A stretch of 63,759 bases of DNA, the filler included, from Dirinaria sp. TL-2023a (Eukaryota), in NCBI GenBank assembly GCA_051941275.1. It is 13 parts of 13 records of this genome, joined end to end, with 100 filler letters (N's around TTAATTAATTAA, not from the genome) between each part and the next. Parts side by side here need not be neighbours in the genome. Positions count along the whole stretch, not along the records: positions 9,881 to 14,705 come from JAVEBF010001764.1; 12 more parts are not named here. One strand, 5' to 3'. Under the pieces are notes generated by a model. The model was not told the DNA's origin, searched no databases, and saw only the letters and a program-made list of their open reading frames with translations. Below are positions 4,855-15,239 of the stretch, one piece after another; position 1 is the first letter of the stretch; the number at the start of each line of letters is the position of its first letter. A program made the position numbers and the translations under genes.

Positions 4855-4954
4855 NNNNNNNNNNNNNNNNNNNNNNNNNNNNNNNNNNNNNNNNNNNNTT
4901 AATTAATTAANNNNNNNNNNNNNNNNNNNNNNNNNNNNNNNNNNNNNNNNNNNN
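4855..4954. other. Artificial contig-joining spacer N44-TTAATTAATTAA-N44 (first of 12)
   Basis: The same 100-nt spacer recurs at 9781, 14706, 19626, 24543, 29455, 34366, 39269, 44171, 49073, 53973 and 58871. TTAATTAATTAA puts stops in all six frames. Contig lengths fall steadily from 4854 to 4789. Confidence 0.99.
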
Positions 4955-9741: not shown

Positions 9742-9998
9742 TGTGCCTGTTCCCCCTCCCCCTCCTCCTCCACCAATGCCNNNNNNNNNNNNNNNNNNNN
9801 NNNNNNNNNNNNNNNNNNNNNNNNTTAATTAATTAANNNNNNNNNNNNNNNNNNNNNNNNNNNNNNNNNNNNNNNNNNNNTGGGGGGTATTTGATTTAGA
9901 TGCATGAGAAGATTTGGGTTTTTTTTTTTTTTTTTTTTTTCTTTTTTTTGTTTCTCCCCACGTAGGAGAAAAAATTTGATACGAGATGATGAACTTAC

Positions 9999-10584
9999 CG
10001 AGGGCAATTTCGGAATCACGACGCCCATTGTGGCCAGAAAATTCACCATAAACGCCCAGCCTTCATAATGGGTATAGTGCGTGCTCAGGAGAAACAAGAC
10101 GACGGGGGTGATGAGGAGGAATTTCTTGGTCGGCGTGTACTGGTCACCGTTGTCGATCTGCTCCCACATGTTCAGGTTGTCGTAGGCGCCAGCGTTGAAC
10201 TCGAAGGGCACGCCCTGCACGTAGTGGAACATCAGGTACGAGCCGAACATGTAGGTGATGTTGGTCAGCGTCCAGGAGGTTTCTTGGCCGAGTGAGAGCG
10301 TGCTGAAGAGGATTTTGAGCAGCGCTATTAGCAGGATGTGGATCGTCCATGCGCCTGTAAATCCGGCGACAGAATTAGTCTTTTTCATTTCGTTGGTCTT
10401 TGATTTATAACTTCTGTAATTCGTATGGAAAGGGGGCATTGAGGAGCATACCTTTCGCGTTCACCCAATCCGCATTCAAATTTGGCAGTGCTGATTGATC
10501 ACTCATATGTTCTATGCTCTCCGGGGGCTCCTGATACAGCAGGCTGCTGGAGCGTCTCCTCCGCCCTTTCTTGCCGTTGTTCAT
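9999..10584 (-). CDS. ORM1: ORM1/ORMDL sphingolipid homeostasis protein (3' end lost at the contig edge); exons 10584-10452 and 10354-9999
   Basis: RRRRSSS phosphosite cluster, NLNADWVNAKG/AW, SWTLTN, FHYVQGVPFEFNAGAYDNLNMWEQID, YTPTKKFL, STHYTHY, IPKLP. GTATGC..TTACAG intron and a further GTAAGT donor at 9998. Confidence 0.96.
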
Positions 10585-11448
10585 GCTTGCGTCGTCGGAA
10601 GCCGGGTTGCGGAAGGGTGTTTGGGGGAAGGAAACGGTTCGGGGGATTATCAAGGGAGACAGTTTGGCGGTGTTGGTTGGAGACCGAGGGGATAAATTGG
10701 GGGCGTTCCCTTTGTTGGGTGGGGTAAGGTAAGATACCACGGGAGCAAATAAGGCTGCGGTAGGCAACAAAAGTCAGCGGAGGAGGATTGTAGATACTCA
10801 AAGGCCTGAGATTGACTTTCGAGAAAGCAAATTTGAGTCAGAGGTAGACAGAAGAAAAGGAGATTCTCTTATACAAATGACGGAAATCATTAAACTGTGT
10901 GAGGATGTCGTACCAAATACCTTGAGTAACGAATGTCCGCAAATCACCTGCACAGGTGATAGCAATGACGGCAAGCCGCACGCCGGTGACAGAGATTCCA
11001 AGATTCGGGGGAGATGAATTGGCAGGAGGCCAGATTAGTATGACGTGTGTATGTCTGTGTGTACAGTATGTGTAAGGACTGCTCTGCTCTGGACTTGCGG
11101 ACCACGTAAGTGCTCGGGGCACGAGAACGCAGTACGAATATTGATTATTGCCTTATTACCTAAGTAAGGTCAGGTAAGTAAGAGCCTCTCAGAGCCTACT
11201 ACTGAGCTGCTCTGAACGGTCACGAAAAAAGCTTGGCGCCGTTGAACAGGGTCTGCGGCAGCTCACGTCGGCCCGATGCAATCCTTGCAAAGCGCGACTC
11301 CCGAGGCCGACCGTCACTGTTGGCGTCGATACTCTACCTTAGTTCTTCACTACAGGGGTTGTTCTTGCATGGGCATTGCAGCATGCTTGCTTAGGCAATG
11401 GGCATAGGACCGCCCGCGAGTCCATGACGAGCGCTGCAGACAGCAACC

Positions 11449-13806
11449 ATGTCCCAGCCAAGTGTTGAGAATTTCCGTATGGAAGGGCTGGATCCCCGCA
11501 ATCCCGCTGGTAAAAGGCCCCACGACGCTGGGGGAGCCGGTCCGTCCGGAGCCACACTCCGTAAGCGTCGCCAGCGGAAGAAGGGAGCTTTTCAAGATGT
11601 GAAAGATTTCGTGCCTCCTGGAGGCAACTTCCACGTCAATGCGGACTTACTGGATGACCTGGGCGATGACGAGCGGGGCACCCACTCTCCCCCACCTAGA
11701 CCAATTGGGTCTACAACAGGTGTCAAGTGGAACAGTGGTGCCAAAGCGATCATCAGGACATCTGCCCAGAGGAAACAAGTTGGCGGTGAGTAGCGATCCA
11801 GATTCTCCATCATACTTATCAGTCACTGACATAGAACAGCGCTCCAAGAGAATAGGTTGTCTGAGCGAACGCTCCGAAGACTAAAGGGGAGTTTGAATAA
11901 TATGCCCAAATCTGCCGTTGACCACCCGGAATGCCAGCAGCTCCAGCAGTCAATCCACAAAGCAGAGGTCGATTTCAACTATAGCCTTTACTTCCCGCTG
12001 GATAAAGAGTACCAGCACCTCTTCCCTCGTGAAGTGCCGCAGCAGCAGAGTTTCGAGGGATCAAGGCCTCTGCTGTGGTATTTTGTAGAAAAGTGCATGG
12101 TCGAGAGCAAATTAGAGGCTTTTAAAAACGGACTTTTGGATCAGGAGCTTGAGAAGGAAGGGCTGGTCTTGGGGCCCAGGAAGGAGGCGCCAAAAGCCTC
12201 ACACAAGGGAACAGACAACCAGATTAAAGCCCAAGTAATCCCAACCGATATAAAAAGTCCAGCATTAGAGCACCAAAGTTCAATCCCAGCATCGATCGAA
12301 AGGCTTCGGAATGATTCATTGTCCGAACAAGAGCAGCATCCACAAGTTGAACACGATGAACCTCGACGAAGTGAATTCAACCAAGGGTTCGTTGTCGAGT
12401 TATCCCCAGATCCTCAGCTCAAGCCCCAAGCACTCGATAAATTGGATGAAAATGGTGACAGCGTCATGCTCAACCTTGAGATCAACGAGCCCGAAAGCGG
12501 TGAGATATCTGAAGAGAAGCCACTGTCCTTCACAGGCGACGGTGCGGGCGATATGGAAAGTGACTCTGAGCAATATGCTGTAGACATCAGAGGCGAAATA
12601 GATGACACGACAGAAGAAGATGACGCTATGATTGAGTACGCGAACGCTGATCGAGCAATGGACCAGCCGAAACCCATGAGCCCCCACAATCGCGGTCCGG
12701 CGTCTCTGGTCGAGCTTAGTAAGGAAGACCTTGACGCGCAGATACGTTACTTTTATACGACCAGCAGCTCTCAAGACTTGAACTTGGAAGTGCTTCCTGT
12801 GCGCTGTCTGGTCTGCGCCAAAACAAGCCATGTGGCGCCGCAGTGTCCAACGCTCTTCTGTGCTGATTGTGGTGCTTATAACGAGCATTTTCTGCCATTC
12901 TGCCCGAAGAAGAAAAAATGCCAGAAATGCCGAGGCCAAGGGCATCATCACAGCCAGTGTCCCAGCAAGTTGAAGCTCACTGCAAGCGAGACCGAGTGCG
13001 ATCTCTGCCACCGCACTGGGCATACTGAGGATATCTGCGAGCTTCTGTGGCGAACGTCAGGGCTCCCCATGCCGTTAGACAACGTAAGCCAGCAGCTGAG
13101 ATACTTATCTTGCTATGAATGTGGCAGAATTGGGCATCTGGGCAACGATTGCAACACCAGGCGACCAGGCAAGAAAATGGGCACGAGCACCTGGTCTTTT
13201 TCTGGCCAAGCTCAGCACATGAGCCAGTCGATCAATTTGTCAAAGCGTGGGCTGAGCATCAAAGGCAAAGCTCTGCCAGCGAATCAACTGGCCAAGGCTT
13301 CTGGTCACGGACTGAGCATTAAGGGCACAGCCACGCAGCGAGAGCTCAAACGTATGAATCTCGGCTCAGACGAAGACGGCAATAGCGATGGTGACGGCGA
13401 TTTTGTCCGCCCTAAAGTCCCAGCCCCAATACGCAGCGGTCAGATCCGTATTGAGACATCGATGGCTAACAAAAACCAGGCAGCTAGCTTGTCGTCTGTT
13501 CACGAACCCTCTCAGAGTCATCAAGGCGTCAGTCCAAACACCAACAACAACAGGAATAGCCGGGCAGGCAATCCGAATCACCCTCGAGGTTCCTTTCGCT
13601 CTAAAAGCATTTCCAACCGCCCAGGTACTCGAAGCCGGCCGAATCCAAATTACGTACCTCCTCCGCCTCGCGAAAAGCCAGAGCAGACGCAGACTAGATA
13701 CCCTATTCGCACAAATAAGTGGCGGAATGCCCGTACCGATCGCGCAGAGATTTACCATCCGATGCCGAGCGCTGCTGAAAATGCTTGGATACAACACAGA
13801 ATATGA
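11449..13806 (+). CDS. AIR1: Air1/Air2-like (TRAMP) protein with five CCHC zinc knuckles and an N-terminal Efg1-like segment; intron 11786-11839
   Basis: Knuckles CLVCAKTSHVAPQC, CADCGAYNEHFLPFC, CQKCRGQGHHHSQC, CDLCHRTGHTEDIC and CYECGRIGHLGNDC. LWRTS after knuckle 4 resembles the Air IWRxY motif. A GTGAGT..CTGAC..ACAG intron joins the two ORFs in frame. Confidence 0.82.
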
Positions 13807-14450
13807 TGAGATCACGAGGACTACTGGTGCTAATCGTTGCGAGATGTAGGCATATTTGTTTCTACGTGCGAAGACGCCAAGGGACTAGTATTGATGAGAT
13901 ACCCCTTTTGTATGATACTCGGAGGAAAAAGCTTCACTGAATGCATGTGTGCTGAAAGAAATTTTTCCTGGTCGAGATGGGTTAACATGCATGTAATACA
14001 GACCAAGAGAGCCTCACAGGAGCTCAATCTTGTCGCTATCATGTATTTCATGCCCGCAAGAATGAATGCTAATTTCCTTCACTGACCTATCCGCGCCTTG
14101 AATAATGTGGGTTACGTTCTTCCGAAGCTCGTAGTAGCCGTTCATTACTTGTAACAATTTGTTCAATTAATGATGACTCTTTATAAGGAGAGCAACGCCA
14201 TTTCAATCATAGATTTTGGGTTTGAGCTGCCGGCGTGCCTGAAATCAGCTTGAATAGTAGCCCTAGGCAAACCCTACTTCTCAAAGTCGAGGGATTAAGG
14301 AGTTAGGTAGTATCAAGCTTGGCATGTCTAAGGTACTCCAATGCGGTAGGTTAGGTACCTTGCTACCTCGAAACTCCATCCGCATTTCCCAAACTTCACG
14401 CCTTACAACCCACTCTCTTCCAGAAATCTCCCACCGATCAAATCTCCAAA

Positions 14451-14622
14451 ATGCCAAAATATAAGTCGTGCCCCTTCCCCCTGTCCCAGCAAAAGCAAGC
14501 TAACCCCCTAGCACTCTTCTGCGACTACTGCGATGTCTACCTGACGCACGACTCTATGTCGGTCCGCAAAGCACACAACGCAGGCCGCAACCACGAGAGA
14601 AACGTATTGGACTACTATCAGC
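14451..14622 (+). CDS. YHC1: U1 snRNP protein C, partial (5' two exons: 14451-14460 and 14515-14622)
   Basis: U1-C zinc finger [35 protein letters not shown]. The second intron starts GTACGC at 14623 and runs off the contig. Confidence 0.95.
14461..14514 (+). other. Putative non-canonical AT-AC intron (54 nt) with U2-type donor context and branch point
   Basis: ATAAGT donor, GCTAAC branch at 14499-14504, GCAC acceptor. Removing it gives [17 protein letters not shown]. Confidence 0.75.
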
Positions 14623-15239
14623 GTACGCCCCATCATTCATTCCCCCTTTTCCTCCCACTCAATCACCTGTTCTCCTCCCTAAACCCTCCAAAATCCACAT
14701 ATTCCNNNNNNNNNNNNNNNNNNNNNNNNNNNNNNNNNNNNNNNNNNNNTTAATTAATTAANNNNNNNNNNNNNNNNNNNNNNNNNNNNNNNNNNNNNNN
14801 NNNNNAAGGCTTCTTCTTGGTAAGCGTCTGCGACATCAAATTAAGTATGCTTTAATACTTGAAAGTCGAACTTACGGTCTGCTTTATTGTTCAACGTTAC
14901 CTACCCCAAATGATCAATAGCACCTACTTGCTTGGGCTTCCGCATAACCGGCAGATTTTCCACCAACAATGACGAGCTTATATCATAACTTGGTCTTTGC
15001 AAAGTCTGCTTGGTATCGTGGACGGTTTGAGAGCGTTCCTTGACGACGGCGAATATCTTTCTTTCACGACGTTTATCGGAGACCCATAGTCGCAGGGGCC
15101 GCTATTTGCTAAGTATGCTGATGGGCGCAATAAGCAGCGTATTTCCAACGTTCGGTTCGAAAGGACTCTCCGAGTCTTCAGGTCTCGGAGGATCCTGCGT
15201 GGCCCACTGAGCTGTTCTATCCAGGCTGCTTACAATAAA

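Follow-up and report, generated by a model that had tools for sequence, protein, structure and literature searches.

An AT-AC Intron, Very Probably of the Major-Spliceosome Type, in the U1-C Gene of a Lichen-Forming Fungus

The stretch of DNA analysed here (hereafter, the window) is 63,759 nucleotides long and originates from Dirinaria sp. TL-2023a (GCA_051941275.1), Dirinaria being a lichen-forming genus of Lecanoromycetes. It is not one molecule; 13 contigs of ~4.8 kb are connected by 12 linkers (N44 + TTAATTAATTAA + N44), located at 4855–4954, 9781–9880, 14706–14805, and 9 more sites, and features are not readable across these joints. An Rfam scan of the window gave no matches, and no snRNA was detected by it. 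The U1-C gene lies on the plus strand at the 3′ end of the contig occupying 9881–14705 (JAVEBF010001764.1). The same contig carries two neighbouring genes, namely a minus-strand gene (9999–11116) with introns at 10354–10450 and 10755–10913, and a plus-strand Efg1/zinc-knuckle (AIR1-like) gene (11312–13969) with a 54-nt GT-AG intron at 11785–11838; the introns of both were confirmed by RNA. The product of the gene upstream of U1-C shows 100% identity to a protein from a metagenome-assembled Dirinaria sp. genome.

The 5′ untranslated part of U1-C extends at least over 14356–14450 on the plus strand, and is covered by an RNA contig (X3 record 17) that spans 14356–14460 and runs through the subsequent splice joint. 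Coding exon 1 (14451–14460, +) was read from the sequence as the ATG at 14451–14453 plus 7 bases, and ends in phase 1. It is followed by intron 1 (14461–14514, +), a 54-nt intron with AT-AC ends whose removal was observed as the RNA joint 14460>14515 in 4/4 runs. The 5′ splice site is ATAAGT (14461–14466, +), which has A at +1 and matches the U1-pairing consensus from +2 to +6. The branch-site motif GCTAAC (14499–14504, +) places the branch A at 14503, 11 nt upstream of the final base of the intron, and the intron terminates with GCAC, of which the final AC (14513–14514, +) is the 3′ splice site according to both the sequence and the RNA joint. An AG dinucleotide is present between the branch site and this acceptor (14510–14511, +), at which no joint was found in the RNA contigs, in which rare variants are dropped. 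The end bases 14461 and 14514 were read from the draft assembly. Exon 2 (14515–14622, +) is 108 nt long and encodes the zf-U1 zinc finger (Pfam PF06220); it is covered by RNA contigs over 14515–14620, and its end is placed at 14622 by analogy with the C/GT donors of orthologous sequences. Intron 2 would accordingly begin with GTACGC at the donor 14623 (14623–14705, +), where the RNA contigs of 4/4 runs have loose ends after 14620 and the orthologues have a GT donor. Past 14620 these contigs continue with the following exon, which translates as QQIGHEKAQS. The U1-C gene is truncated within intron 2 by the contig end at 14705, and the linker starts from 14706.

When 14460 was joined to 14515, the translation opened with the N-terminus of the U1-C family. 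The N-terminal U1-type zinc finger, by which the gene was assigned to U1-C, starts at the first residues of the protein once intron 1 is spliced; the contig stops before the C-terminal part. When intron 1 is retained, the reading frame stays open as far as the contig end without stops, and the zf-U1 profile (PF06220, E = 7.8e-19) is aligned at positions 5–38 of 38 only. The preliminary description, made from the sequence of the window, had recognized the ATAAGT...GCTAAC...GCAC layout, the recovery of the U1-C N-terminus on removal of 14461–14514, and the in-frame and stop-free nature of the 54 nt, all of which were borne out by the present reading, the translation, and the zf-U1 match. It had also noted that a GT-AG alternative at 14465–14511 shifts the frame; this was confirmed, and that alternative was ruled out. 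Enumeration of all GT..AG pairs in 14454–14519 gave none in frame (0/9). For GC..AG pairs in the same interval, 2 of 4 are in frame, yet they are 30 and 42 nt long, use the donor GCCCCT, and do not restore the family N-terminus.

A search of public sequencing runs gave 4 RNA runs and no DNA runs. The RNA runs derive from one lichen metagenome sample of one study and contain 6–16% of the sampled words, and their contigs were aligned to the window contig at 90% likeness. The junction that had been proposed for inspection, 14460>14515, was found in 4/4 runs, with one contig in each; it skips 54 nt with AT..AC ends and contains no ambiguous letters. The depth at this joint was 3.6–14.3, and its shorter side was 56–105 nt. 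The remaining 3 RNA joints on the contig 9881–14705 are all canonical: one is the GT..AG joint 11784>11839, and the other two appear as CT..AC, which correspond to GT-AG on the minus strand. The source of the RNA is a relative that is ~91–97% identical to the window (3/106 letters differ in exon 2 and 9/105 in the 5′ part), so that the joint was recorded for this relative, whose own intron ends are unseen and whose genome could in principle be without the intron. The RNA contigs display the spliced form only; as assembled contigs, they hide minor isoforms, retention, and rare junctions, and shares of isoforms are not quantifiable from them.

Orthologous introns were collected by comparing a profile of the zinc-finger exon with metagenome contigs, which gave 377 pattern matches; 267 of them passed confirmation, and the 80 best were retained. 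An intron is present at the identical site, after ATGCCNAAR+T, in 37 of 81 sequences (the best 80 of the 267 loci plus the window), and the site is intron-less in 44 of the 80 loci. At least 14 of these 44 lie on contigs longer than 10 kb and are therefore genomic. By locus, there are 25 GT-AG, 3 GC-AG, and 9 AT-AC introns (8 loci plus the window). The GC-AG introns were found in L022, L025, and L050, and GC-AG at the orthologous position was also read from the proteins P0012 and P0119; a single orthologous site therefore carries all three known combinations of ends. The introns comprise 32 distinct sequences (22 GT-AG, 3 GC-AG, and 7 AT-AC), and none of them is of a mixed type such as AT-AG or GT-AC. 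An AC end was thus found in 7/7 distinct introns with an AT donor and in 0/25 with a GT or GC donor. The AT-AC introns are divided into 6 lineages with dissimilar interiors (the window, L026, L023/L074/L075/L079, L040, L076, and L077), which appear independent when their sequences are compared. The gene upstream of U1-C in the window is also next to U1-C in 5 of the AT-AC loci, indicating synteny. For placement of the metagenome loci, tblastn with 37 named U1-C proteins gave top matches scattered over several classes because the U1-C C-terminus is Pro/Gly-rich, and the loci were not placeable by it.

The AT-AC introns share further features. The donor is ATAAGT in 5 of the 6 lineages and ATGAGT in one, and the CTRAC branch motif was identified in 6/6, with the branch A located 12–13 nt from the exon. 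This distance is mostly 14–29 nt in the other introns (p = 4.5e-4). The AT-AC introns are 49–54 nt long versus 51–151 nt for the others (p = 3e-4), and their positions +3 to +6 are AAGT in 5/6 lineages versus 5/22 of the others (p = 0.013). A Fisher test for the end pairing by lineage (6/0/0/22) gave p = 2.7e-6. All these p values ignore shared ancestry and treat the lineages as independent, which they are not. The proposal that the G>A change at the first base is compensated by the AG>AC change at the acceptor is hence reflected in the orthologues, where the first and last bases covary with no mixed pair among 32 distinct introns. The comparison of first introns among orthologues that had been suggested at the outset likewise revealed AT-AC ends in 6 lineages, besides GT-AG, GC-AG, and intron-less loci. 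Retention is in frame and stop-free in the window only; the lengths of the other 5 AT-AC lineages are not divisible by 3, and in-frame stops occur in 4 of them. A second RNA proof of AT-AC splicing was not obtained from these data: among the 44 intron-less loci, only L007 and L012 match an intron-bearing locus, and they represent the spliced form of L028, a GT-AG locus.

Several differences in gene structure were observed around this site. In L023/L074/L075/L079, L040, L076, and L077, a 6-nt micro-exon (TCTTCT) separates the AT-AC intron from a second, GT-AG intron, which interrupts the codon for the first zinc-finger Cys and is absent from the window. The micro-exon site lies ~60–80 nt upstream of the match start, and in L062 the micro-exon is present behind a GT-AG first intron. 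The same arrangement was found for the proteins P0031, P0044, P0057, P0076, P0100, P0117, and P0171. In L026, the U1-C gene (31–640) is interrupted solely by a 50-nt AT-AC intron; an intron after YYQ, which is present in the window and most of the 14 loci listed, is missing from it. The L026 contig (1045 nt) may be genomic DNA or an intron-retaining transcript.

The U1-C proteins in the database were also inspected. A total of 125 models was obtained, consisting of 120 of the 409 found and 5 from a search limited to residues 1–40; the N-termini of these 5 extra proteins are all ordinary. Among the matches listed, 88 of the 125 models have the normal N-terminus, which is identical to that of the window after splicing. 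In 23/125 the model reads through an intron with an AG end (...AG/TC; V before FCDYC), in 7/125 through one with an AC end (...AC/TC; L before FCDYC), and in 6/125 through a second intron following an MPKY start, while 1/125 is of ambiguous N-terminus, again among the matches listed. Within the same set, MPKY starts occur in no V-type model and MPKC starts in no L-type model. By eye, all readable donors of the V group are T/GT or T/GC, as recognized from, for example, MPKC... starts or out-of-frame reading of those bases, and all readable donors of the L group (P0003, P0088, P0001, and P0005) are T/AT; the acceptor of P0003 is not readable from the protein alone. Of the named species, Orbilia brochopaga (Orbiliomycetes), three Penicillium species, and the Dothideomycetes Microthyrium, Rhizodiscina, and Lineolata show an AT or AC end, and Botrytis sinoallii, Diaporthe eres, and Nemania serpens an AG end. 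A false N-terminus, derived from intron read-through or an invented upstream start, was observed in 37 of the 125 models among the matches listed, and all 13 models with a visible AT or AC end belong to these 37. In P0171 (Lecanora helva, 934 aa), the upstream zinc-knuckle gene is fused to U1-C in the model.

These data indicate that intron 1 of U1-C is very probably a true AT-AC intron belonging to the U2 (major-spliceosome) type. AT and AC ends, exact removal in the RNA of a close relative, the ATAAGT donor, a CTRAC branch, and covariation of the end bases are found together, as expected for a U2-type AT-AC intron. CTRAC is the U2-type branch consensus of fungi, and U12-type introns have the donor consensus ATATCCTT and the branch site TCCTTAAC, neither of which occurs among the 7 distinct AT-AC sequences; the donor is hence not of U12 type and the branch point is of U2 type, as first described. 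The same U12 donor consensus is given in an excerpt of PMC5029451, which further reports the consensus /ATAAGT for U2-type AT-AC introns of metazoans and the splicing of an engineered AT-AC intron in yeast. Ascomycota are described as lacking minor introns and minor snRNAs, i.e., the minor spliceosome, in sections of PMC10639083 and PMC2396436, in agreement with what the preliminary description had stated for ascomycetes. The donor and branch of U2 kind, together with the reported absence of a minor spliceosome, are therefore the basis for reading it as a major-spliceosome AT-AC intron, and that absence in Ascomycota also suggests its dependence on the U1, U2, U4, and U6 snRNAs.

The following process is proposed for its removal. 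The U1 snRNP would pair with the donor from +2 to +6 despite the A·C mismatch at +1, and the first catalytic step would go ahead. The normal non-Watson–Crick contact between G(+1) and G(−1) would be replaced during the second step by the A(+1)/C(−1) pair; such replacement is proposed on the basis of work by Parker and Siliciano (1993). This contact would lead to selection of the AC, and would also explain why no RNA joint uses the AG three bases upstream. With their tightly limited length and spacing and their strong donor, the AT-AC introns seem to make up for the weakness of their ends.

Other explanations for the locus were considered. An assembly or sequencing error would imply that the true intron is GT-AG and that both end bases are wrong in a metagenome-assembled contig. 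The assembly is indeed a fragmented draft with contigs of ~4.8 kb, but two coordinated errors would be required, and AT and/or AC ends recur in 13 database proteins and, across 5 further lineages, at 8 independent metagenome loci, which makes such an error exceedingly improbable and strengthens the original judgement that a double error is unlikely. It is also highly improbable that no splicing occurs and the 54 bases encode an insert of 18 residues, or that the start codon is elsewhere: an open, stop-free frame would permit the insert, but these bases are missing from the RNA contigs, the insert would cost positions 1–4 of the zf-U1 profile, the orthologous AT-AC introns are out of frame, and the next ATG (14557) sits inside the zinc finger. 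A different question is whether the intron is a fossil, namely a former U12-type AT-AC intron that turned into U2-type upon loss of the minor spliceosome in the ancestors of Dikarya. Such an origin is compatible with U2-type splicing today. AT-AC ends are found in several classes of Pezizomycotina, including the early-branching Orbilia, and the fixed and short branch-to-exon distance of 12–13 nt resembles that of U12-type introns, which have a short distance between the branch and the 3′ end. The 7 distinct AT-AC sequences, however, bear no sign of the U12 consensus at either donor or branch, and among the matches listed in the literature on SNRPC and minor introns no paper contains SNRPC; this origin was hence judged improbable.

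The preliminary description had raised the further idea that this intron acts as an autoregulatory sensor, in which the donor with A at +1 ties the productive U1-C mRNA to the activity of the U1 snRNP or U1-C, thereby feeding back on U1-C itself. The unusual donor indeed resides in the gene for U1-C, the very protein by which U1 is stabilised at mismatched 5′ sites. According to a portion of PMC4383343, U1-C aids competition by oligonucleotides with mismatches, +1 included; since U1-C thus assists the U1 snRNP at 5′ sites mismatched at +1, a dependence of intron 1 on U1-C is plausible. Long persistence is suggested by an AT or AC end in proteins of Orbiliomycetes, Dothideomycetes, and Penicillium, together with the complete pair in a lichen-forming fungus. 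Retention would be unproductive in 5/6 AT-AC lineages owing to off-frame lengths, with stops in 4 of them, which fits regulated unproductive splicing, and a related human circuit, where U1C controls the splicing of U1-70K, is described in part of PMC3798272. Against this, 44 of the 80 loci (best 80 of 267) are intron-less at the site and 28 have GT-AG or GC-AG introns, so that many relatives can do without the AT-AC feature in expressing U1-C. Nor does retention have a conserved outcome, being an in-frame insert in the window and a frameshift or stop elsewhere, and ~9–11% of fungal introns are in frame and stop-free by chance according to a passage of PMC7072748. Furthermore, a 5′ site dependent on U1-C would yield positive rather than homeostatic feedback, as deduced from the same portion of PMC4383343, and only the spliced form is seen in the RNA contigs, although minor forms are hidden there. 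The sensor idea is thus weakened by the intron-less and GT-AG relatives and by the in-frame retention unique to the window, as far as sequence comparison can tell, and we regard it as unlikely. A broader version is equally doubtful: the AT-AC intron might be ancestral to Pezizomycotina, perhaps as a converted remnant of the minor spliceosome, and might have been kept for hundreds of millions of years by coupling U1-C output to the use of a 5′ site mismatched at +1. If true, it would provide an inherent check on the function of the U1 snRNP, or a feedback on it, with the GT-AG versions and the intron loss being later escapes. A simpler account than regulation would be entrenchment of a major-spliceosome AT-AC intron. 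The compensated end pair would be difficult to abandon, since reverting one end alone, whichever it is, should block the second step in an essential gene, and with this barrier the AT-AC intron could therefore persist without a regulatory role.

An AT-AC intron in a fungal U1-C gene has no prior description that we could find among open-access papers and preprints. This kind of intron is known; what is new, as far as could be seen, is the gene in which it resides, its fungal setting, its spread over several classes, and its natural covariation. AT-AC introns constitute a minor class in fungi in one survey, as given in a passage of PMC7072748. Since those removed by the major spliceosome are rare, a conserved fungal case offers a natural substrate for examining how a first base other than G is handled, and some of the carriers, such as Penicillium and Orbilia, are tractable. 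The covariation of A/C versus G/G across orthologues represents a natural repeat of the classic experiment on the interaction between the first and last bases. As the intron is located in the gene for a protein that stabilises U1 on mismatched 5′ sites, the feedback hypothesis is directly testable by a two-base swap. In addition, gene finders restricted to GT/GC-AG introns mis-annotate the essential U1-C gene.

U2-type AT-AC introns of animals and plants, which Sheth et al. (2006) reportedly catalogued as 'type II', resemble the present one in their AT...AC ends, /ATAAGT donor, ordinary branch, and presumed removal by the major spliceosome. The U1-C intron differs from them in residing in a filamentous ascomycete without an alternative spliceosome, and in being 49–54 nt long and present in several fungal classes beside GT-AG and GC-AG versions. 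U12-type AT-AC introns share the terminal dinucleotides and the short distance from the branch to the 3′ end, whereas the donor of the U1-C intron is ATAAGT instead of ATATCCTT, its branch is CTAAC instead of TCCTTAAC, and its lineage is reportedly without U11, U12, U4atac, and U6atac. The identical compensating pair, A with C for G with G, was reportedly engineered into yeast introns by Parker and Siliciano (1993) as a double mutant of G1A plus AG-to-AC; in contrast to these mutants, the pair in U1-C is natural and long kept, and its covariation is seen across orthologues. The cross-regulation from human U1C to U1-70K (a part of PMC3798272) is similar in that a gene for a U1 snRNP protein possibly hinges on unusual splicing; the known circuit involves an alternative exon, whereas the AT-AC intron of U1-C is a candidate event. 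The nested AT-AC intron of yeast RPL30, according to an excerpt of PMC5029451, is likewise an endogenous AT-AC junction in an ascomycete without the minor spliceosome. That junction is used in 1–2% of transcripts, has a donor unlike /ATAAGT, and is not one on which the protein depends, whereas the U1-C intron has the consensus donor and its removal is required for the conserved N-terminus.
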